A DNA stretch of 64,000 nucleotides, from assembly GCA_027002995.1 (NCBI GenBank), contig JALWZB010000155.1, forward strand, positions 26,365 through 90,364, in the 5' to 3' direction. Source of the DNA: Desulfurococcales archaeon (GTDB taxonomy: Archaea; Thermoproteota; Thermoprotei_A; Sulfolobales; NBVN01). A program made the position numbers and the translations under genes. This document shows positions 15,857-48,183 of the stretch, piece after piece. The notes below the pieces were generated by a model. The model made no database searches. It saw only the letters and a program-made list of their open reading frames with translations, and was not told the DNA's origin. Position 1 is the stretch's first letter; each line of letters opens with the position of its first letter.

Positions 15857-15944
15857 TGGCGCCGGGGGCGGGATTTGAACCCGCGCGGGGGTGTACCCCA
15901 CCGGCTTAGCAGGCCGGCGCCCTACCGGGCTAGGCGACCCCGGC
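15857..15944 (-). tRNA. tRNA-Ser (anticodon GCU), class II with long variable arm; CCA encoded
   Basis: The reverse complement folds as acceptor GCCGGGG/CCCCGGC, D arm GCCT..GGGC, anticodon stem CCGGC/GCCGG with loop CT-GCT-AA, and a 16-nt variable arm (GGGG-TACA-CCCC). The T arm is GCGGG-TTCAAAT-CCCGC, the discriminator is G, then CCA. Confidence 0.92.
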
Positions 15945-38126: not shown

Positions 38127-40718
38127 TCACCCCCGAACCTTGCGCATAACGGCTTCATAGAGGCGGAGGAGTAGTTTCTTACGATCCTCCATGAGTACCA
38201 CGTCGCTGTATCCCTGCGCGACTATGTTGTGTGCGAAGGGGGATGGTGCGTCGTAACTCCTGAATATGGTGACCCTTACCTTTCCCTCTTCTATCCACTT
38301 GAGTACCTTCTCAGCGTCACTTACGTTCATATGGTCTTCCATCACCTCCCTGTATGCTTCCTCTAATAATGGGAACCCGGGGATTTTCTCTACAATGCGT
38401 AAGAGAGTCTCGGAGTTAAGTTGCCTTCTATTAATATTGGTTTCCACACCCTTATAGTTTTTCAGTATTGCGAAGGATCTCTCCGCAACGTGTCTGAACC
38501 TTCTCTTAAGTATCTCGCTTCTTCGTAAGGCTTTCCTCAATATTAGTCGTAGGTTAGAGCTCCGCACGCTATTCAATAAGTCCCTCACATCATTTTCAGT
38601 TACGTGCGCGTAGCTCGGAACAGTTAACATAAAGCCATTGTCAGTTACGGTTACCCTTACGCTGGCTTCGACGATTCTACTCAACACCGCGGCATAGGCT
38701 CTAGATAGTGCTGCATTGACCCTCCTTCCAAAGAGGTAGTGGAAAATTACGTCAGTGCCATTTACCTGTGGGTCCTCCCATATCTCGATTGCTAACTCCT
38801 TATTCGTTGGCACTATTCCTCCAGTGTACTTCATCTGTTCCCATACGTAACTCACTATCTGAGCTGCGGCATGTTTCGTTAGCTTATACTGTTTTGAGAT
38901 AATGTTTACTGCTTCCTCGTAACTTAGCTTAGTGATTAGGTCCTTTACGTATCCCCGGAACCTACCTACTTCTAGGGCTGAGTCGAAGGATAGTGGGAGC
39001 ATCTCGGAAAACCAGCTTGGTACTGTGGGTCTCTGATTATCGGCTCGTTTCACTATTATTTTCATTCCCTCCGATCTCACGTACTGGTACGTTCTCCCTC
39101 CAAGCACGAAGATATCTCCGGGCTCCAGGTACTCGACGAATCCCTCATCTAGGTTCCCAACGTACCGGTGGCCATCTAGAAGCACCTTTATTTTGGCTTC
39201 GTCCGGTATCGCGCCTGAGTTCAAGTAGTATATCATCCTAGCCGACTTCTTCCTGCCGAAAACACCCTCGAGTTCGTCCAACCATATCTTAGAGTAGACA
39301 GCAAGCCCTGTGAATGAAGCTTCGTACCTGCCTGCAAGGAACCTTAGTACGCGCATGAACTCATCGAATGTTAAGTTCCTGAAATTAAACGATCTTCTCA
39401 CAACTCGGTAAGCGTCTCTTATGTTCCATTTCTTCTCGAGCGACATGCCCACTATGTGTTGGGCTAGCATGTCGAGAGGTTTCTCAGGGATCCTTATCCT
39501 GTCTAGCTTCCTCTCCATCGCGAGCTTAGCTAGCACCGTGTCTTCTATTAGGTCGTCTCTGTCCACCGCTATCACGTAGCCCTTACTTACGTCGCTTACG
39601 CTATGCCCTGACCTCCCCACGCGTTGAATTAAACGGGTGACGCTTTTGGGACTACTGAGTAGCACGACGGCGTCTATGTAGCCTATGTCAATGCCGAGTT
39701 CAAGGCTCGACGAACAAACTACTGCCTTCAGTTCACCTCGCTTGAGCCTGTCCTCAACCTCAAGCCTGACGTCCCTACTTAATGAACTGTGGTGCGCCTC
39801 TATGTCATCCGCGTTAGCAACGCCCTCACTACTTAGTATTTTCTTTAACTTATAGACTACCCTCTCTGTGGCGCTTCGTGTGTTCGTGAATATTAACGTT
39901 GTTCTGTGATTGCTAATTATCTTCTTGAGTAGGTCGTATATGGCCTCATTTATCTCTGCAGCGGATGCCCTCACAATATCTATTTTGGGACACAGTACCT
40001 TGACCCTTAAGGGTTTCACGAATCTTGCGTCGATAACCGTGCAGTTCCTAGGCTTTCCGTTATCCTCGTAACCCACGAGAAACTGTGCAACGACCTCGAG
40101 GGGCGATATCGTTGCGCTTAGGCCTATTCTCTGTATCCTCCTCCCAACTAGTTCCTCGAGCCTCTCAAGGCTTAGGCTTAAGTGAGCGCCTCTCTTACTG
40201 GACGCTAGCTCATGGATCTCATCTACTATTACCCACCTAACGCTCCTGAGCCTCTCTCTGAACTTGGGAGCTGTTATTATTATTGCTAGTGATTCAGGCG
40301 TAGTTATGAGTACGTGGGGAGGGTGACGCAACATCCTTTGCCGTTCTGAGGGCGTGGTGTCGCTTGTCCTGACACCCACACTTATTTCAGGTAACTCTAT
40401 CCCTAGTTCCTTTGCCTTCTCCCGGATCCCTAGTATCGGTGGTATTAGGTTCTTCCTCATATCATTGTTCAGCGCTCTCAAAGGGGAGACATAGAGAACG
40501 TATACTTTCTCCTCGAGCTTACCCTGCTCACCCAGCCTGTACAACTCATCGATTAGCGCGAGAAAAGCAGCGAGCGTTTTCCCCGTACCTGTAGGTGATG
40601 ATATTAGTACATTCTCACCCCTCTTGATTCTAGGTATGGCCATTAGCTGCGCTGGTGTGAACTTACCGTACTTCTCCCTAAACCATTCAAGGGTGTACCT
40701 AGCTAGGTACTTCTCCAT
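38127..40718 (-). CDS. lhr: Lhr-type large ATP-dependent helicase (SF2, DEAD_assoc C-terminal domain)
   Basis: The opening is FTPAQLMAIPRIKRGENVLISSPTGTGKTLAAFL, followed by VDEIHEL, LSATI and QRVGRSGH, with a long Lhr-core C-terminal region. The ATG at 40718 gives MEKYLARYTLEWF. Confidence 0.85.
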   Translation of the reverse strand: MEKYLARYTLEWFREKYGKFTPAQLMAIPRIKRGENVLISSPTGTGKTLAAFLALIDELYRLGEQGKLEEKVYVLYVSPLRALNNDMRKNLIPPILGIREKAKELGIELPEISVGVRTSDTTPSERQRMLRHPPHVLITTPESLAIIITAPKFRERLRSVRWVIVDEIHELASSKRGAHLSLSLERLEELVGRRIQRIGLSATISPLEVVAQFLVGYEDNGKPRNCTVIDARFVKPLRVKVLCPKIDIVRASAAEINEAIYDLLKKIISNHRTTLIFTNTRSATERVVYKLKKILSSEGVANADDIEAHHSSLSRDVRLEVEDRLKRGELKAVVCSSSLELGIDIGYIDAVVLLSSPKSVTRLIQRVGRSGHSVSDVSKGYVIAVDRDDLIEDTVLAKLAMERKLDRIRIPEKPLDMLAQHIVGMSLEKKWNIRDAYRVVRRSFNFRNLTFDEFMRVLRFLAGRYEASFTGLAVYSKIWLDELEGVFGRKKSARMIYYLNSGAIPDEAKIKVLLDGHRYVGNLDEGFVEYLEPGDIFVLGGRTYQYVRSEGMKIIVKRADNQRPTVPSWFSEMLPLSFDSALEVGRFRGYVKDLITKLSYEEAVNIISKQYKLTKHAAAQIVSYVWEQMKYTGGIVPTNKELAIEIWEDPQVNGTDVIFHYLFGRRVNAALSRAYAAVLSRIVEASVRVTVTDNGFMLTVPSYAHVTENDVRDLLNSVRSSNLRLILRKALRRSEILKRRFRHVAERSFAILKNYKGVETNINRRQLNSETLLRIVEKIPGFPLLEEAYREVMEDHMNVSDAEKVLKWIEEGKVRVTIFRSYDAPSPFAHNIVAQGYSDVVLMEDRKKLLLRLYEAVMRKVRG

Positions 40719-40899
40719 CCTAACACTTCCAGCTCTCCGAATTACTCGTAGCATCCACCATCACCTCGCTGGCGATTAACTCAATGCTGTTTAGGCCCGG
40801 GGCTCCAGAGCTACGTATGTCTTTACTCCTGAACTTATCTTCGTTTCCTAAACGTAACCCTATATAGGGCAAGAACTATCTATACGTAGGGTTTCATCA

Positions 40900-41466
40900 T
40901 TGAAGGTCGAGGCAATAGTGGTGCTGACGGTGTTTGTACTCGCTATACTTTACGGTGCTTTACTACCACCTGATTACAAATCGAGCGTAACCTCCTCCAC
41001 GAAAGAGGTGCTGGCACCTGTATCTGATTTCGTTAAGAAGAACCCCATTAAGACATTCCTTTCGTTGCCGTTCATTATATTTTATAATAACTTGAGGGTA
41101 GCAATAGTTAATCTATTACTCGGTGTTACTCTACTAGCCCCCTTGGGGATAGCTTGGTTTAATGGATTCATAGTAGGGTCCATAGCAACTTATGGTGATG
41201 TCACTAGGAATATTATATTGCTACTACCACACGGCATAATTGAGCTAACGGCAATACTGTATTCAGCTGCTCTAGGTTTGAAAGTAGGTGTTGAGTTCAT
41301 AAAGAAGGTTCTACTTAAGAGAGGTGCGCCCCTTAAGGCATTTAAGTATGCCCTAAGTAAATTCAGAATAATATTCATCCTCCTGTTGATCGCGGCAATT
41401 GTGGAATCATACATTACCCCATTAATATATTTTCTATACGCTTTAATCACGGGTAGCAAGATATGA
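40900..41466 (+). CDS. SpoIIM/DUF95-family integral membrane protein
   Basis: 188 aa with a TTG start and several TM helices. It contains the family motif LLLPHGIIELTAILYSAALG. Confidence 0.6.
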   Translation: MKVEAIVVLTVFVLAILYGALLPPDYKSSVTSSTKEVLAPVSDFVKKNPIKTFLSLPFIIFYNNLRVAIVNLLLGVTLLAPLGIAWFNGFIVGSIATYGDVTRNIILLLPHGIIELTAILYSAALGLKVGVEFIKKVLLKRGAPLKAFKYALSKFRIIFILLLIAAIVESYITPLIYFLYALITGSKI

Positions 41467-41593
41467 GTAGTGAGCTATGCAGAAGGGCAACACAAGCATT
41501 CATTGACGCGCTACTCTGCTACCTACGGTCAAATGCCTTACGCACCCTTAAGATAGCGTTCTCCGTCTACCGTTATTTCTAGTTATTTTTTGA

Positions 41594-41604
41594 ATATTTT
41601 TAAT
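41594..41604 (+). promoter_or_regulatory. TATA-like box (ATATTTTTAAT) upstream of the GC-rich block
   Basis: This AT-only box lies ~20-30 nt before the abrupt rise in G+C at 41611. It is also part of the left inverted-repeat arm. Confidence 0.3.
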
Positions 41605-41610
41605 ACGGTA

Positions 41611-41712
41611 GGCGGGTCATCACGCTTCCGCTCGGAGCCCCTCACCGCAGTAGCTCACCCCTAGTTACCTAGGGGCTCACAGCTCTACGGCTCCTGGAAC
41701 TCCGAGGTCACT
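41611..41712 (+). ncRNA. Candidate structured RNA or transposon-end hairpin region (unclassified)
   Basis: A GC-rich island between AT-rich flanks. It has a perfect hairpin, CCCCTAG-TTAC-CTAGGGG (41658..41675), and long-range complementarity CTCGGAG/CTCCGAG (41631..41637 with 41700..41706). The strand assignment is a guess. Confidence 0.35.
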
Positions 41713-41731
41713 GATAAATTTATGGCATTCT

Positions 41732-41744
41732 AAGTTTATAAGTG
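41732..41744 (+). promoter_or_regulatory. TATA-like box (AAGTTTATAAGTG) for a leaderless TnpB-like mRNA
   Basis: It is centred ~24 nt upstream of the TTG start at 41762. Confidence 0.35.
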
Positions 41745-41761
41745 TTTATGGGGCTATAGCC

Positions 41762-42862
41762 TTGCAAAAACGACCATTATACACTGTTAAACTAACATTT
41801 AATGATAGTGGGGAGAAAGCTAAGAAGATATTGTCTACTGCATGGTTGTTTAAGATAGCTTGTCATAGGGTTCTAGGTAGGTCTAAGGATTTGAGGGACA
41901 TGCTTGTTCCTTCAAAGATTGCTTGGCTAAAGATGTTCAAGGACTATGCATATAGTATCATACCTAATAAGAGGTACTCCTATGGTGTTGTCTACCTAGT
42001 CTATGGAATATGGGAATCTGCTAAGAGACTAAAGATAGACTATAATAATGTAGAACTTAGCGACTGGTTGCTCTTTCAACATTATGATAGGGAGGTTAAT
42101 GGTAATGTGATAAGGGTTTATGAGGATGGTTCTGCACTAGTAACCACTTATGGCTATGATGGTTCAAAGGATAGGATACTCGTAAAGGCGAAACCTCATA
42201 GAGGTTATAAAGAGTTGCTTGGGAGGATTGTTGAGTCTAAGGAGAAGTACATGCCTAGAGTAGTGGTTAGGGACTATGGTGTAAGGAGTGGCAAACTCTA
42301 CGTTAGGGGAGAAATACACGTCTCTATATCATACGACTTCTACCTAAGATGTGCTAAGAGATATGGTGAACCCAAGGGCAACTTGATTGGCGGTGTAGAC
42401 GTTAATACCGACAGGATTAACCTAGCAATAATAGACGAAAACGGCAGGTTAAGGGATAGGAAAACATTCTGGTTCCCCGAAGTAACAGCTAGAGGGTACC
42501 CAAGGAATAAAGCCTGGGGCATCATAGGTATGAAAATACATGAAATGCTCAGGTACGCCTACTATCATGGAGTATCAACTTTAGCTTTAGAGAGCCCCGA
42601 GATTATGGGCAGGTTAAGGCTCTTCTGGATTAAAAATGGTAGAAGACTACATAAAGACTATAACTGGAAGGTAAGCATCTTCCGTAGCAGAATCATAGAG
42701 AAGGTAAACATGAAAGCACCTATCTATGGGCTACGCGTAAAGTACGTAGACCCAAGAGGGACAACTCGCTCCAGAGAACATAATGAAACAATGCAAAGAT
42801 ATGGATTAGACAAACATACAGTATCTGCTTACCTAATAGCATTAAAAAGTATTCAAAAGTGA
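41762..42862 (+). CDS. TnpB/IS605-OrfB-like RuvC-fold protein lacking the zinc ribbon
   Basis: 366 aa. The OrfB-like opening is YTVKLTF..KKILSTAWLFKIACHRVL. RuvC-I is GGVDVNTDRINLAIID (D213), RuvC-II is STLALESPE (E277), a YVDPRGTTRS segment replaces V.P.YTSQ.C, and RuvC-III-like is GLDKHTVSAYLIA (D350). There are no Cys pairs between these last two motifs. Confidence 0.7.
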   Translation: MQKRPLYTVKLTFNDSGEKAKKILSTAWLFKIACHRVLGRSKDLRDMLVPSKIAWLKMFKDYAYSIIPNKRYSYGVVYLVYGIWESAKRLKIDYNNVELSDWLLFQHYDREVNGNVIRVYEDGSALVTTYGYDGSKDRILVKAKPHRGYKELLGRIVESKEKYMPRVVVRDYGVRSGKLYVRGEIHVSISYDFYLRCAKRYGEPKGNLIGGVDVNTDRINLAIIDENGRLRDRKTFWFPEVTARGYPRNKAWGIIGMKIHEMLRYAYYHGVSTLALESPEIMGRLRLFWIKNGRRLHKDYNWKVSIFRSRIIEKVNMKAPIYGLRVKYVDPRGTTRSREHNETMQRYGLDKHTVSAYLIALKSIQK

Positions 42863-42890
42863 TTAAAAGTATCTTAAAGTATCAATACCT
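42841..42890. repeat. Four to five tandem 10-bp units with phased A-tracts
   Basis: The sequence reads ATTAAAAAGT / ATTCAAAAGT / GATTAAAAGT / ATCTTAAAGT / ATCAATACCT, in exact 10-bp register. The TGA stop of the TnpB-like ORF is at 42860..42862. Confidence 0.75.
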
Positions 42891-42922
42891 TAGAAACAAC
42901 CTCACTAACGGGCCAGAACGAA

Positions 42923-43168
42923 GTGAAGGTCTCGCTGAGGGCGTTCATGCGTTGCCATGACACGTCCTCAGGATTTGCTAGGATTGAGGAGGTGGTGAAC
43001 ACCTTGACTAGGTGTAGTGAGGGTTCCTGGATTCAAAGGCTTGGGTGGGGTTACATCTTCGAGGGGGAGGAGCTGTACTTCATAATCCCCCTAGAAAGCC
43101 TTAAGAAACTAACTGAGGCTGAGGAAAAAGAGCTTGCATCCGCCCTGCTGAGAGATCTGGGTTTCTGA
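42923..43168 (+). CDS. Hypothetical small protein (81 aa), doubtful
   Basis: It has a GTG start and no recognisable motif. The C-terminal half (EELYFIIPLESLKKLTEAEEKELASALLRDLGF) looks protein-like, but the ORF lies in the unassigned 3' flank of the TnpB-like gene. Confidence 0.3.
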   Translation: MKVSLRAFMRCHDTSSGFARIEEVVNTLTRCSEGSWIQRLGWGYIFEGEELYFIIPLESLKKLTEAEEKELASALLRDLGF

Positions 43169-43230
43169 CTAACGTGTAAGGAATTACTTTAAGTAAGCTA
43201 AGAGCAAAGAAAATGAATGAGTTAAAGCTG

Positions 43231-43280
43231 TTGATGAGAGTCATGCCCCCTGATCGGTGATGAGCATTAGGGGTAGCTGA
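43231..43280 (+). ncRNA. C/D box sRNA (2'-O-methylation guide)
   Basis: The layout is UUGAUGA (C), a 12-nt guide GAGUCAUGCCCC, CUGA (D'), UCG, GUGAUGA (C'), a 13-nt guide GCAUUAGGGGUAG and CUGA (D). All four boxes are consensus. Flanking AGCT (43226..43229) and AGCT (43284..43287) can form a terminal stem. Confidence 0.85.
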
Positions 43281-43457
43281 AGGAGCTCCATTACCCTAAC
43301 CTACTTCAATCCTCGGAAGCCCGGACCTTTATGAAACCCCCTAAGTCCTTGGGTAGTCCTTGCATGTAATGAGAGGAATGTTAGAAGGCTTGGTAAAAAT
43401 CAAAACATTAATAGGTAAAGCATCAGGAGGGAAGCCCTACTCTAAGTAGAGGATGCC

Positions 43458-44030
43458 TTACCTTAACTTCTTTCTAGCATCCCTCTTTATTGTTGGGATC
43501 GTTGTTACTATGGCGTAAACCCCTGCTTCCAGCAGTGTCGTGCAGATCGCCACATCGTTAACTAGTCGAGCAATAATGTTGATCTTACGTGCCTTAGACT
43601 CACTCAGTATTCTCCCCCTTACTAGGGTTGGGGGCATGACAATGAATTTCGCCCCTGCTCGTTGATAAGGGCTTAAGGTGGATGCCGGATGGTTAAGCAT
43701 TAGCCCTACCTTCACGGTGTTTGGTAGTTTAGGCTTACTGAGTAACATATCTTGCATATCGTTAAACGCTAATAATATCTCGGTGTTCCCCATCTCCACT
43801 AGCTTTACAACCCCGTTGATCTCCTCATCATACCTCTTAATACCAAGAATTAACATTACGCGGAGTTCCTTAAGGTGCTCAGGGCTTAGGGAAGCCCCTA
43901 ACTCTGACAGGTTTACTTCATTTAAGTTAACGGCAATACCATCCAAGTACCGCTTATTTAGTCTGAATTCCTTTAAGCCCTCCTCGATATTAGTTACTTC
44001 AAGAAGCACTAAACCTGAGTTATTACTCAT
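43458..44030 (-). CDS. Hypothetical protein, weak resemblance to the C-terminal half of GDPD-type TIM-barrel phosphodiesterases
   Basis: 190 aa. INIIARLVNDVAICTTLLEAGVYAIVTTIPTI resembles the GDPD C-terminal pattern (V..WTVN....L...GVDGIITD.P). The N-terminal catalytic His/Arg/Glu motif was not seen. Confidence 0.35.
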   Translation of the reverse strand: MSNNSGLVLLEVTNIEEGLKEFRLNKRYLDGIAVNLNEVNLSELGASLSPEHLKELRVMLILGIKRYDEEINGVVKLVEMGNTEILLAFNDMQDMLLSKPKLPNTVKVGLMLNHPASTLSPYQRAGAKFIVMPPTLVRGRILSESKARKINIIARLVNDVAICTTLLEAGVYAIVTTIPTIKRDARKKLR

Positions 44031-44283
44031 TACTTATCACCAACTTATTCAAGGTCTTAAAAGATATTAAGGTATCCGAAGGTGCTACTTGAGTTAGCTA
44101 GAACCAATAACCAAAGGGAAATAAGTCCTTGCTAAGCTCTTACCGTTATGTTGAACCTAATGATTCTTTGCTAAGCCAATTGCATAATGAAGCGTTAGTA
44201 ATTCTCATTATTCAGTACTTTGAGCTAGGGTTGGAAAGAATGTTTCGGGATTAAAAACTGTGGATTTTAACCTAGCCTTTTAT

Positions 44284-47200
44284 TTAATCACCTGAGGGTG
44301 CCGTATAATACAGGTTACCTGTTATCATCCAGTCTTGAAGTACGTATTGGTCTGTTAATGTGTAATAGCTGTTGAAGTACTTGTAATATACTGGGATCTC
44401 TGGGAACGATGCAATGTACAGTACTATTAAGTCGACCCTTGGCTTCTCAAAGCTTAGGTAGCAGTTCAGGCCACCCCACTTAAGCGTGTACCTATAGAAT
44501 ATTGATGGTCTACTATACCCTGATGGCGTGATTTGCAAGGTGCTGTAGTTGCAGAGGCTTTGCGATGTGAACATCGGTAATGCTGCCTGACCAAAGACGA
44601 AGTCTATAGAGCTCGCTCTGTAGGGCAGTCTAACATACGTTGTCAACTGCCCGCTTGTTGACATGACTGCATTGGGTAACATCTTGTAACCTGGTAGTGC
44701 CCTTACCCAGACTCTGAAGCCCTCGAAATAGTATGACCCACCGTAAAGTACTGTCCTAACTATTATTGTGTATACTCCTAGGTTTGGCTTGGTGGTTGGG
44801 TACTCGCCGTCACGGTATGTTGTTAGTGGGAAAGTTATTACTGACCTAGTGTTGGGTGACTTATACCTTCCTGTATCCATCCATAAGAACCTTCCACTAC
44901 CTAAGTAGTAATGGTAGGAGGCACCCGTTCCGTAGTAGACACCTGCGAATTGCCCATCAGGTCCCAGCGTGTATGTTATTAGTGATGTGTAGCTGTTGAA
45001 CCAGCTTACCTGGAGCTGGAGCAACCATACCTTAGAGTCTGGGATGTTAACGTAAAACACTCTCCAGTCACCGGATTCATACCTCCAGTCCCATGCAGTG
45101 TCTCCTTTCAGGAAGCTCCATGAGTATGGATATGATGCTGCTCCTGGCCCTGTATTCACTATGCGTGACCATCCGGCTCTTAGTGTAGTGTATATTGTGT
45201 AGCTTAATGGCACGTAGTAAGTCATCGTTGTCCCGTCCGCGAACCTAACATTTAATCTTACGTAGTCCTGATACGCTGTTGGCGCCGCATATACTGGCGG
45301 CCTTATAATACCTTTGATCGTCACTGTACTGCCTGCCCTAACAAAGAACTTACCGCCTGGATACCTGCTCAGTAACCTTACCCAGTTGTCTGCTTTGAAC
45401 CCATAGTAGGTTATCCCGACCTTAACTACTTGATTGCGTAACGCTGTCTTGGCAGGGGTTGGATCGTCTCCACGCTCTAACCATATCCTAAGTAATAACT
45501 TGGCATTAGGACCGTACTCCTCAAGTAGCTGTAACGGTAACTTAACCTGCACTAGGTTGTGGTTTGACAGAGAGTAACCGAAGTTTATCACCACTCTTTC
45601 ATCAACATCTGGTACACCGTTTCCGTTGAAGTCATCAATCCATACGTAGGCTATTATAGATACGTAGTAATCAGCGTAGTAGTCATTATCACCGTCGAAT
45701 ATCGAGTATGGTAGTACCACATCTGCTGTTAGGTACTCCGTTCCCTTAGGTATCTTTGATTGAGATATCACTATGTATTCGTATGTGCCGAAACTATCCT
45801 CAGGTATGGTGAATCTTAGGTAGTAATTTACTGGCCCAGCAATTTTTGCGGGCCTAACGACGCTTGCCTGTATAACTGCTAGGGAGTTCGTTGGGTTCTC
45901 TACCGTGAATGTGAAGTACCTTAGACCCCCCTGCGGTATGTCTGGCTCGTATATGCTGTAAGCCTTACCCTGAGCATATGAGGATAGTAGGTCGTACGGC
46001 GACATGGACGGCAGTGTGAAGCCGTACCAGTAGTACAGGTTTAAATCACAGTAGTCTGCCCACATCCATTCCCATATCCTAGCCATTTTAGCGGCAGTGT
46101 ACTTGTAGAATGCGTCGCTGAAGATCCTTAAGCCCTTGTAGGTATTGGCGCTTGAATTGGCTATTTCTAATGCTAGCTGAACAGCAGCTAAAGCATTCAC
46201 ACGGCCAGCACCCTCGTCAAATGGTGGGTAGTGTAGGTTTACGGCGGTATTCATTATTATTTGCTTAACGAGCCAAGGCGGTATATTCGTCATTCCCTGG
46301 GATTTTAGGGCCTGATATACTAGTGCCGCGACGCCGGCTGTTAAGGGGGTCGCGTAGCTGGTTCCTCCGAATATTGTGTAGTTACCCGCACTTAACCATA
46401 CCGGGGCTGCGGTTAATCCCCACGCACCAACGTTAACTACGTCCGGCTTGATGTATCCTGCCGGTGTTGGGCCTCTGGCAGACCAGGATACTATGTCGTC
46501 ATAGGTGTATCCTCCGAAGCCATAGAAGTAGTAGTATATGTGTGTCGAGGTTGATGCGCCTACGGTCAATACTCCTCCAGCTGCCCCTGGCGACGTGATC
46601 GTGCCATAGCCTGCGCCGCCGTTACCAGCTGCATGGACTATCAATACTCCTGGGTAGTTCGGGTCCAGGAACCCTGGGGTGGTTATTGCGTCCTCAAATA
46701 GGGATTCGAAGTCATAGCCGAATCCTGATATGTCGTATACAAAGGTGCTTATGCCCCAGCTATTGCTTATTAGGTCTACCCTCGGCGTGCCAGTATATAC
46801 TGGCGTGTACCCACTTATGTTGAATCCGGCTGCCCAGAGCATACCTACCTCTACGTCACCGAACCATAGCCCCTTTATACCTACTATCTTAGCTCCGGGT
46901 GCTATGCCTTCAGGGAAGCCCCTGCTCGCTATGGCCGCTGCACAGGATGTTCCGTGCCCGTAGAAGTCGTAGAATATGCTTAGGTATTTGCCCTGAAGGT
47001 TCCAGCCAGCATATATCTGTCCTGGGTAGTTGAAGTTCCAGTAGGCATCGAAGAAGAAGCCGCCTGCTACTCCGAAGCTCGCGTAGGGCCATGTGCTTCC
47101 GGGTTTGTATGCGGCCAGTATCCTGTTGCCGTCATATGTGACCTTAATGTCTTCTGGGTCGTTAAATATGCTGTTATTGTTAGCGTCTACGTATAGCGTC

Positions 47201-48183
47201 GTGTAGTTTCCGGCGGTTGTTGGGTCGGTTAGAAGTACACCTACTTTTACCCATTTGCCTTCACCCTCCATATACTCATAGAGGACTCCGAACTTGTAGT
47301 TGCCGCTTAGTGATGTCACGTTACTCACATTGTAAGCACTGTACGGCGCAGTTAGGTTGACTGGGTCGGGTATGTAGTCGGTGAAGTTAATTCCGCCAAC
47401 ATTTATGAAGCCTGTGGCGTTCGCTGTGAATGTCTTGAACAATATTACTAGGTTCTCGTCAGCGTCCAGCACTAGTGGTTCCCTTATATCTGTGCCATTG
47501 TATGTGCCCACGTAGTAGGTTAAGGCACCCTGTAGGTCTGGATTCCCGTAGTCAACACCGGTATCTATTACTGCTACTTTTATGCCTGTGCCATTGAAAC
47601 CATAGAGTTCTTCGGCGGCTGCGGCCCCTATTAAGTACCTTATGAAGAAGTTATTTGTTTTAGGCTTGATCTTGGATATGTCTGGGGTCTTTGCGGAGTC
47701 CGTTATTAGTGACTCTTTGTTCTTGGGTGGTACCTTATAGAGAAGTGCTGTTTCGAAGTTTATTAGTGGTTTTTCTGCAAGGCCCAATACTACTGTCTTG
47801 TATGGACGTAACGCATTAACTATCTTGCCTATGGGCCCCACAACCTTAAAGATGTAGTTACCCTTTGCGTCCCTCCTGAGTGTTGAGGCAACAATACTGA
47901 ACTTCTTGCCCAGCACGGTTATTGTCACCTTCCTCAAGCTATTGTAGAGTTGTAGAACCTTGCTGAGGGGTGTTGACGCTTTAATGACTACCACAGCCTG
48001 AACCTTGAAGTCCTTGTTAATACCAGGAGGTATGTTTAAGCCGTGTAACTTAGTGCTTTGTATTGTGTATTGTTCTAGCGTAGGTGCGGTACTGGCTGTT
48101 ACTGATGACGATACCGCTGTCAAGGCGGTTAACGCCACTAAGGTTATAATTATTAGGCTAACTACCCTCCTCACTGCATGCAC
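44284..48183 (-). CDS. Giant secreted subtilisin-like serine protease (peptidase S8)
   Basis: 1299 aa with a signal peptide (VVSLIIITLVALTALTAVSS). The catalytic Asp is in VAVIDTGVDYG, His in YGHGTSCAAAIAS, the oxyanion Asn in HAAGNGG and Ser in GGTSYATPLTAGVAALV. It has large insertions, a long C-terminal extension and many N-x-S/T sequons. Confidence 0.9.
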   Translation of the reverse strand: MHAVRRVVSLIIITLVALTALTAVSSSVTASTAPTLEQYTIQSTKLHGLNIPPGINKDFKVQAVVVIKASTPLSKVLQLYNSLRKVTITVLGKKFSIVASTLRRDAKGNYIFKVVGPIGKIVNALRPYKTVVLGLAEKPLINFETALLYKVPPKNKESLITDSAKTPDISKIKPKTNNFFIRYLIGAAAAEELYGFNGTGIKVAVIDTGVDYGNPDLQGALTYYVGTYNGTDIREPLVLDADENLVILFKTFTANATGFINVGGINFTDYIPDPVNLTAPYSAYNVSNVTSLSGNYKFGVLYEYMEGEGKWVKVGVLLTDPTTAGNYTTLYVDANNNSIFNDPEDIKVTYDGNRILAAYKPGSTWPYASFGVAGGFFFDAYWNFNYPGQIYAGWNLQGKYLSIFYDFYGHGTSCAAAIASRGFPEGIAPGAKIVGIKGLWFGDVEVGMLWAAGFNISGYTPVYTGTPRVDLISNSWGISTFVYDISGFGYDFESLFEDAITTPGFLDPNYPGVLIVHAAGNGGAGYGTITSPGAAGGVLTVGASTSTHIYYYFYGFGGYTYDDIVSWSARGPTPAGYIKPDVVNVGAWGLTAAPVWLSAGNYTIFGGTSYATPLTAGVAALVYQALKSQGMTNIPPWLVKQIIMNTAVNLHYPPFDEGAGRVNALAAVQLALEIANSSANTYKGLRIFSDAFYKYTAAKMARIWEWMWADYCDLNLYYWYGFTLPSMSPYDLLSSYAQGKAYSIYEPDIPQGGLRYFTFTVENPTNSLAVIQASVVRPAKIAGPVNYYLRFTIPEDSFGTYEYIVISQSKIPKGTEYLTADVVLPYSIFDGDNDYYADYYVSIIAYVWIDDFNGNGVPDVDERVVINFGYSLSNHNLVQVKLPLQLLEEYGPNAKLLLRIWLERGDDPTPAKTALRNQVVKVGITYYGFKADNWVRLLSRYPGGKFFVRAGSTVTIKGIIRPPVYAAPTAYQDYVRLNVRFADGTTMTYYVPLSYTIYTTLRAGWSRIVNTGPGAASYPYSWSFLKGDTAWDWRYESGDWRVFYVNIPDSKVWLLQLQVSWFNSYTSLITYTLGPDGQFAGVYYGTGASYHYYLGSGRFLWMDTGRYKSPNTRSVITFPLTTYRDGEYPTTKPNLGVYTIIVRTVLYGGSYYFEGFRVWVRALPGYKMLPNAVMSTSGQLTTYVRLPYRASSIDFVFGQAALPMFTSQSLCNYSTLQITPSGYSRPSIFYRYTLKWGGLNCYLSFEKPRVDLIVLYIASFPEIPVYYKYFNSYYTLTDQYVLQDWMITGNLYYTAPSGD

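Follow-up and report, generated by a model that had tools for sequence, protein, structure and literature searches.

An OMEGA-like archaeal mobile element with a predicted structured RNA module, antisense to the gene for a zinc-finger-less TnpB/Cas12f-fold nuclease

The ωRNAs (also termed reRNAs) of TnpB nucleases in IS200/IS605-type OMEGA systems, such as that of ISDra2, are among the closest described counterparts of the locus considered here. In these short insertion sequences, which lack inverted repeats and target duplications, a compact TnpB/Cas12f-fold protein works with an RNA carved from the 3' end of its mRNA; the last helix of this scaffold lies at the transposon end, and the flank supplies a 3' guide. 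A PNAS census of TnpB and Cas12 places ωRNAs downstream of tnpB. The ωRNAs of IscB and IsrB are instead structured RNAs upstream of the nuclease gene, within the element end; that of IscB lies on the same strand as the gene and has a 5' guide, and IscB itself is Cas9-like, with an HNH-interrupted RuvC domain and a PLMP domain. The guide RNAs of Cas12f and Cas12k, composed of tracrRNA and crRNA, are separate units in which the guide lies 3' of the scaffold. We describe a mobile element of 1,343 bp (positions 41558-42900) in a stretch of 64,000 nucleotides, here called the window, from contig JALWZB010000155.1 of a Desulfurococcales archaeon. It is most likely an OMEGA-like element that combines an RNA module, antisense to its gene and bearing kink-turn (K-turn)-type motifs, with a zinc-finger-less nuclease, an arrangement new to the literature that we searched; in particular, no description of it was found in the literature on PF27229/SSO2105 and TnpB.

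The likeness to the TnpB systems extends to the compact protein fold, the short element without inverted repeats or target duplication, the position of the last scaffold helix at the transposon end, so that a 3' guide would derive from the flank, a conserved motif at the other junction that could be a transposon-associated motif (TAM), and the existence of miniatures that lack the open reading frame (ORF). Unlike in those systems, the scaffold lies on the opposite strand and on the 5' side of the ORF, has a predicted promoter of its own rather than being carved from the 3' end of the mRNA, and contains K-turn-type motifs and a GNRA loop, while the protein has no zinc-finger (TNB) insert, is missed by the TnpB Pfam models, and is not accompanied by TnpA in the element. 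With IscB and IsrB the locus shares a structured RNA upstream of the nuclease gene within the element end, but the strand is the opposite one, the guide would be 3', and the protein has a Cas12f-like fold. Cas12f and Cas12k provide the best structural matches to the protein and likewise have separate RNA units with the guide 3' of the scaffold; unlike them, the locus has no CRISPR array, repeat or adaptation genes, and a single module is fixed to the transposon end.

The original prediction, made from a single sequence, had drawn attention to a G+C-rich, palindrome-dense block upstream of the ORF. Its compositional claim holds, with a G+C content of 0.60 over 41600-41699 against 0.34-0.46 on both sides, and each of its motifs is present: the GCTCAC copies (41653-41658 and 41675-41680), the hairpin CCCCTAG (41658-41664)/TTAC/CTAGGGG (41669-41675), the long-range pair CTCGGAG (41631-41637)/CTCCGAG (41700-41706), and the pair GGAGCC (41634-41639)/GGCTCC (41689-41694). 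The 28-nt string containing the hairpin and the repeats occurs once in the window, with a chance expectation of 0. A stretch of 121 nt folds with -57.1 kcal/mol (z -5.06) on the minus strand and -45.5 kcal/mol (z -3.5) on the plus strand, and no shuffled sequence equalled the native fold on either. Across homologous loci the 7-bp hairpin and the CTCGGAG/CTCCGAG pair are both kept and covary. The GGAGCC/GGCTCC helix, which had been proposed as a mutually exclusive alternative, was rejected: it shows no covariation, and its pairing across loci (64.9%) is no better than that of shuffled alignments (64.7%; 246 of 500 shuffles reached or exceeded the observed value).

In each of the 55 genome loci whose upstream sequence is long enough, the block and about 60 nt to its left are conserved immediately before the ORF. 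From 53 loci a minus-strand alignment (A2) was made, which served to define helices and to build a covariance model; it supports five helices: S1, S2, an apical hairpin, P0 and H1. In this alignment 88.4% of cells are paired, as against 70.1% after shuffling and 39-47% when the partners are slid, and compensatory changes on both sides occur in 34 of 43 pairs; none of 500 shuffles attained any of the observed measures. The covariance model has a sole match in the window, at 41542-41718 on the minus strand (118 bits, E 2e-30). An independent set of 80 metagenome loci, kept outside model building, includes 75 with enough upstream sequence, and 72 of these have strong module matches just upstream of the ORF, the other three being weak and degenerate. 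Here 90.1% of positions are paired and 28 of 35 pairs show compensatory change. Even if it should not be a guide, the module, backed by over 120 loci and some 30 covarying pairs, would be among the best-supported of new structured elements.

The predicted RNA module occupies 41555-41714 on the minus strand and runs from 5' UCAGUGACC through S1/S2 and the apical hairpin, and then P0/H1, to the element boundary. S1 (41629-41707; 41696-41707 with 41629-41641) holds the CTCGGAG/CTCCGAG pair, and S2 and the apical hairpin lie within it; pairing over its 12 pairs is 94.6%, with changes on both sides in 11. In the interval 41642-41695, S2 joins 41682-41690 to 41645-41654 (nine pairs, 90% paired, seven with compensatory change), and between S1 and S2 lies an asymmetric GA loop with AGGAG (41691-41695; consensus RAGAN) on its 5' side and UGA (41642-41644) on its 3' side. 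Among the 75 independent loci the 3' UGA is found in 66 and the 5' RAGAN in about 70. The apical motif (41655-41681, minus strand) combines a K-turn-type UGUGA...GA pattern, made up of the GCTCAC copies, with an 8-bp hairpin showing covariation in five of its eight pairs and a GNRA loop, GUAA (TTAC on the plus strand, 41665-41668). The terminal domain (41555-41626, minus strand) contains P0 (41622-41626 with 41555-41559), H1 (41605-41615 with 41563-41573) and a large H1 loop (41574-41604) that is A-rich on the minus strand. Compensatory change is seen in eight of nine pairs of H1, whereas P0 is 95.5% paired with one covarying pair (CG in 44 sequences, GC in 9). The junction of P0 and H1 is also of K-turn type, with GAUGAC (41616-41621) facing AGA (41560-41562); in most loci the bulged side reads NNUGA and the opposite side NGA. 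The covarying pair of P0 (alignment columns 101 and 186) links a scaffold nucleotide to one at or just outside the element boundary (window 41555-41557), and the element may recognize its own end or its target by base pairing.

Several features bear on which strand carries this structure. In 52 of 56 loci the fold of the minus strand is the more stable one, by a mean of 10.6 kcal/mol. Over the helices as a whole there are 237 G·U pairs on the minus strand as against 59 A·C mismatches (G·U pairs if the plus strand is read instead), and the bias is strong in S1 (141 versus 5) and S2 (41 versus 10). The apical loop is of GNRA type on the minus strand (GCGA, GCAA, GUAA or GUGA) in all 17 loci with the apical extension. 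Runs of five or more T, a signal for transcription termination in archaea, are found on the minus strand in none of the 53 modules and in 2 of the 75, and on the plus strand in 10 of the 53. A K-turn is composed of a canonical stem, a 3-nt bulge, tandem sheared G·A pairs and a non-canonical stem, and is a binding site for L7Ae. The GCTCAC copies read GUGAGC on the minus strand, and generate a K-turn-type pattern of stem-NNU-GA facing N-GA-stem; 63 independent loci have the apical extension, and xxUGA...NGA with a G(C/U)(A/G)A loop was present in all 45 rows inspected. The second such pattern is found at the P0/H1 junction, where a C-box-like GUGAUGA lies opposite UGA, and most loci have CCGU-GAU-GA... 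facing ...U-GA-ACGG, the same kind of pattern as in the apical hairpin. Judging from the G·U to A·C ratio, the GNRA loops, the folding energy and the position of the promoter described below, it is the strand antisense to the ORF, the minus strand, that folds.

The K-turn-type patterns are reminiscent of archaeal L7Ae-bound RNAs such as the box C/D small RNAs (sRNAs), in that a C-box-like GUGAUGA faces UGA beside a Watson-Crick stem and the motif type recurs apically. Unlike box C/D sRNAs, the module has no D/D' box or methylation-guide layout, scores far below threshold against Rfam, is about three times as long, and is borne by a transposon.

The predicted promoter for the minus-strand RNA (41735-41748, minus strand) consists of a TATA box, TTATAAA (41735-41741), and an A-rich stretch resembling a transcription factor B recognition element (BRE; 41742-41748). 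Across loci, in the minus orientation, S1 is preceded by a conserved UGGUGA, and the TTATAAA box is centred about 27 nt ahead of this motif. Given that this is the spacing of archaeal BRE/TATA elements and that the side on which the A-rich stretch lies fits the minus strand, the arrangement points to minus-strand transcription. A second conserved A/T box (41716-41723, plus strand; consensus TTTATTA) is located about 10 nt from the RNA 5' end, too near UGGUGA to drive synthesis of the minus-strand RNA, and may act as the TATA box for the ORF. Just before the start codon there is a conserved palindrome (41752-41761), GGCTATAGCC here and GGGGATTCCCC in most other loci. The two A/T boxes (41716-41723 and 41735-41741) interleave: each stands in the stretch from the other box to that box's presumed start. 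Together with the palindrome they may constitute a switch between transcription of the RNA and of the ORF. Of the AT-rich boxes noted on both sides of the block in the original prediction, the two downstream ones are indeed conserved, whereas the upstream one (41574-41604) is the variable apical loop of H1 and contains no conserved promoter. A scan of the site for bacterial promoters and terminators, which is unsuited to archaea, found nothing.

The boundaries of the element are defined by an empty site. Contig L159, from another sample, has the same neighbouring genes at 97-98% identity but lacks exactly 1,343 bp: its positions 1-1084 correspond to window 40474-41557 and 1084-2787 to 42900-44600, with an ambiguity of 1 nt in the register of the element (41557-42899). 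With a slash for the junction, the empty site reads AAGATAGC/CTCACTAAC, the left end in the window AAGATAGC/GTTCTCC, and the right end GAAACAAC/CTCAC; in the RNA-sense orientation the rejoined empty site is 5'-...GTTAGTGAGG(C)/TATCTTAAGGGTGCG-3'. The covariance model finds no module in L159. These ends agree with those inferred from Caldivirga sp. MU80, in which the ORF is multi-copy and similarity between copies extends from about 205 nt before the ORF to 5-55 nt after it. The element interrupts a host ORF of 120 aa (MSSELCRR...LRDLGF; 41463-41557 and 42900-43168), which is intact in L159 (990-1352) and belongs to no Pfam family; an 81-aa ORF at 42923-43168 is its C-terminal remnant. There are no terminal inverted repeats and no target duplication beyond 1-3 nt, and insertion takes place by a short conserved motif, as in IS200/IS605-type elements. 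This right-end motif (42893-42902, plus strand) is GAAACAA followed by CCT in the window, and its consensus, G-W-W-W-C-W-G followed by CCC(C), is conserved in 96 distinct junctions.

A 275-nt miniature without the ORF (L008:3443-3717) retains the module, the promoter region and both ends. It is inserted within the ORF of another copy, and GGC is common to both of its junctions (an ambiguity of 3 nt). Only one ORF fits in the element, a Y1 transposase (TnpA) is not encoded, and a clear hairpin is found at the RNA-module end alone; at the other end none was established when the sequences were inspected by eye. The GC/GGC core at both junctions makes a crossover of the serine-recombinase or IS110 type possible. 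An analogy with the IS110 bridge RNA, in view of these core nucleotides common to both junctions, was set aside, as the protein has a Cas12f-like rather than an IS110-like fold. The idea of a domesticated syntenic gene was likewise rejected: the genes flanking the element in the window are common to none of 153 fetched loci, and there is an empty site. A search for a viral origin found no relative in IMG/VR. Elements of this kind are carried by hyperthermophilic archaea of Desulfurococcales, Caldivirga, Vulcanisaeta, Ignisphaera and Aeropyrum-like lineages, including Vulcanisaeta sp. JCM 14467 and Caldivirga sp. MU80.

The sole protein of the element is encoded by an ORF of 366 aa with a TTG start (41762-42862, plus strand). 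It had no match at E 0.01 or better in local Pfam and NCBIfam libraries, but has 768 homologues, chiefly from Desulfurococcales and Thermoproteales metagenome bins, which carry the recent Pfam family PF27229 ('SSO2105_N'). A profile search of 1.84 billion representatives recovered just 286 relatives, and the family profile matched none of the PDB sequences; judged by sequence, this is a narrow and remote family. The only signal for the TnpB models (OrfB_IS605, Cas12f1-like_TNB) is sub-threshold, with 10 of 22 members matching the N-terminal portion of Cas12f1-like_TNB (best E 0.034). An AlphaFold model built from 22 homologues (pLDDT 87.7) matched Cas12k and Cas12f over the full length in Foldseek (E 6e-10 to 1e-8, TM 0.44-0.63), and RuvC resolvases rank after them in the list. 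Two acidic residues, D213 and E277, do not vary, a third, D350, shows at least 90% conservation, and in the model all three lie at strand ends or at a helix start, as expected of a RuvC acidic triad. Residues 325-366 contain no cysteine and are modelled in part as a helix, so that the C4 zinc finger between RuvC-II and RuvC-III is absent; some TnpB clades have been reported to be without a zinc finger (PMC10691335). On the strength of the model, the protein is predicted to be a zinc-finger-less RuvC nuclease of the TnpB/Cas12f fold. The earlier description of the ORF as TnpB-like is therefore supported by the fold, although not by Pfam or NCBIfam family assignment.

In light of the above observations, we consider it moderately probable that the module is an ωRNA-like guide scaffold, transcribed divergently and independently of the ORF and reading outward across the transposon end. 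In this proposal the RNA would be made from the strand opposite the ORF, by divergent transcription from the BRE/TATA elements in the short spacer between the two. It would start near 41712 and proceed through S1, S2 and the apical hairpin and then P0 and H1, yielding two domains: S1-S2 with the apical K-turn and GNRA loop, and P0-H1 with the K-turn formed by the C-box-like GUGAUGA and UGA. The presence of the last helix at the boundary suggests that transcription continues into flanking host DNA; P0 ends at 41555-41559 and the boundary is at 41557/41558, so that the scaffold abuts it as in TnpB ωRNAs. The product would be a nuclease guide RNA with a 5' scaffold and a flank-derived 3' guide, in keeping with the logic of the TnpB ωRNA, although its transcription unit would be antisense, separate and placed at the element end nearest to the ORF. 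Conservation stops at the element boundary in all alignments, and the host DNA beyond the scaffold (41535-41557, minus strand; 5' (GC)UAUCUUAAGGGUGCGUAAGGC), which is part of the 120-aa host ORF that L159 has intact, is the candidate guide suggested by such read-out. The nuclease would target DNA beside a GGG(G)C-type motif at the opposite end, where G-W-W-W-C-W-G followed by CCC(C) is the candidate TAM. The K-turns, as their sequence patterns suggest, are probably bound by archaeal L7Ae.

The protein itself adds to this case: a Cas12f-fold protein is expected to need a guide, and there is no other structured region in the element, which points to the module as the guide scaffold. A canonical ωRNA at the 3' end of the element and on the same strand as the ORF is unsupported, as over 32 loci the final 170 nt of the element have no fold of significance (mean z: plus strand -0.15, minus strand -0.38). 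Of the three possibilities raised in the original prediction, a guide-RNA scaffold 5' of the nuclease gene survives in spirit, although the IscB-like geometry with the RNA on the same strand and a 5' guide does not, it being the minus strand that folds. The proposal of a subterminal left-end hairpin was correct in its placing, with the last helix lying at the boundary of the element, but a module of five helices and about 160 nt takes the place of the single hairpin. An unrelated small RNA is contradicted by the constant association with the ORF in genomes (55 of 55 loci) and metagenomes (72 of 75) and by the empty site without the module. The broader idea of a structured, RNA-like block tied to a TnpB-like ORF in an IS-type left end is therefore retained, and the IscB-like arrangement suggested for it is not.

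A number of observations weigh against the guide-scaffold proposal. A precedent in TnpB for the antisense, ORF-proximal position was sought in the literature, and none was found. The empty site also contains the outermost 2-3 nt of P0 (41555-41557); P0 thus pairs the element with target or core nucleotides in a manner that resembles cleavage-site recognition in IS200/IS605 elements, and P0/H1 shows no G·U bias (47 G·U versus 38 A·C). By analogy with those elements, or with a shared crossover core, the terminal domain may act also, or instead, on DNA. The K-turns are assigned from sequence motifs only, and the central RAGAN/UGA loop would have a bulge of 2 nt rather than 3 nt if S1 is fully paired. 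Furthermore, the copy in the window has GAAACAA where the 96 other junctions have an invariant G (GAAACAG), and owing to this right-end substitution it may no longer be mobile. The more elaborate view, of a new OMEGA architecture with a divergent antisense guide gene, interleaved promoters, K-turns that recruit L7Ae and ORF-proximal read-out, is accordingly put forward tentatively, with slightly more doubt than confidence.

Among the competing explanations, the minus-strand RNA could be real without being a guide, serving as a regulator of the ORF through promoter interference or titration, or as a structural or L7Ae-binding RNA for transposition or element stability. The interleaved A/T boxes would permit mutually exclusive transcription, the K-turn motifs imply a protein partner besides or instead of the nuclease, and transposon-associated antisense small RNAs have been reported in Sulfolobus (PMC3388794). 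Such an RNA does not overlap the ORF, which makes classical cis-antisense pairing impossible, and a non-guide role leaves aside both the precise coincidence of the scaffold end with the boundary and the retention of the module in the ORF-less miniature. Given, in addition, the expected need of the TnpB/Cas12f-fold protein for a guide, with no second structured region to provide it, we regard this explanation as unlikely.

An explanation that we judge marginally less probable still is that the module acts at the DNA level, its minus-strand single-stranded structures being recognized as a transposon end by a transposase acting in trans, with P0 pairing internal 'guide' nucleotides with the cleavage site as at the right end of IS608, and no functional RNA. 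As at IS608 ends, P0 pairs nucleotides 5' of H1 with terminal or target nucleotides 3' of H1, with one covarying pair, and the presence of the outer P0 nucleotides in the empty site as target or core sequence, the terminal position of the module, the missing G·U excess in P0/H1, the insertion without duplication beside G-W-W-W-C-W-G and CCC, and the fact that the element encodes no transposase would all accord with this mechanism. However, the IS608 mechanism is known for DNA and a Y1 transposase; here no transposase is encoded, and the rest of the module has signatures of RNA: the strong G·U bias of S1 and S2, and the GNRA loops and K-turn-type GA motifs. Five helices with more than 30 covarying pairs far exceed the known end hairpins of IS200/IS605 elements, the conserved BRE/TATA is at the right distance for a minus-strand transcript, and the other end of the element has no comparable structure.

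It is very improbable that the plus strand is the functional one, either as the 5' leader of the ORF mRNA or as an upstream ωRNA in the style of IscB, with the AT-rich box at 41574-41604 as its promoter. This strand, too, folds better than shuffled sequences (z -3.5), the upstream AT-rich stretch is TATA-like, and the IscB arrangement is a known precedent. Yet its fold is the poorer one in 52 of 56 loci, 237 pairs would turn into A·C mismatches, the loops would be UUAC, UUGC or UCGC rather than GNRA, and the AT-rich stretch is a variable hairpin loop; moreover, T5+ terminator runs occur in 10 of 53 modules, and the conserved A/T boxes sit between the module and the ORF. Least credible of all is an archaeal small RNA of an established class (box C/D, H/ACA or intron-containing tRNA) adjoining the ORF by chance, for which a weak minus-strand match to the C/D sRNA sR10 (14.9 bits, E 0.25), attributable to the GUGAUGA motif, can be cited, against a gathering threshold of 45, the want of a D box, ACA box, pseudouridylation pocket or tRNA, and a module that always accompanies the ORF and is absent from the empty site. 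When the 64-kb window was searched with Rfam, no family passed the gathering threshold at the site, the sole match being a tRNA-Ser elsewhere, and ARAGORN found neither a tRNA nor a transfer-messenger RNA (tmRNA) at the site. This tRNA-Ser (GCT; 15857-15944, minus strand) is the only Rfam or ARAGORN hit in the window. A box C/D sRNA was rejected in that the C-box-like GUGAUGA stands alone, with no D box and with sR10 below gathering, and an H/ACA sRNA in that the region from S1 to the K-turn is fully paired, leaving no pocket, and no ACA follows S1.

Certain loci have more than one module. L101 (444-780) and L103 (866-1202) each have a back-to-back pair of oppositely oriented RNA modules beside an ORF that lacks its first 66 codons, which suggests that one element inserted into another near the promoter region. 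L020 (6531-6674) and L033 (5650-5812) have extra modules, inverted and a few kb away from the first copy; these are probably second copies of the element cut by the end of the locus. In the window, the neighbouring genes code for an Lhr-type helicase (38127-40754, minus strand), a SpoIIM-family membrane protein (40900-41466, plus strand) and an S8 subtilase of 1,299 aa (44284-48183, minus strand), and in other genomes the element is not associated with any of the three.

If the minus-strand RNA is indeed a guide, a TnpB-type ωRNA would be separable from the nuclease mRNA and movable to the other strand, and such a separate antisense ωRNA would represent a step toward the tracrRNA and CRISPR units of Cas12. 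The element would then encode an RNA-guided nuclease that is very small, free of a zinc finger and presumably heat-stable, and for which a scaffold is defined and a TAM can be proposed. Also defined are the 5' end predicted for the scaffold, the boundary, the empty site and a candidate target, and at least two of the carriers are in culture. Through the K-turns, the host RNA chaperone L7Ae may be built into a transposon-borne guide RNA, and transposon-guided nucleases would thereby be joined to the archaeal world of K-turn/L7Ae ribonucleoproteins.

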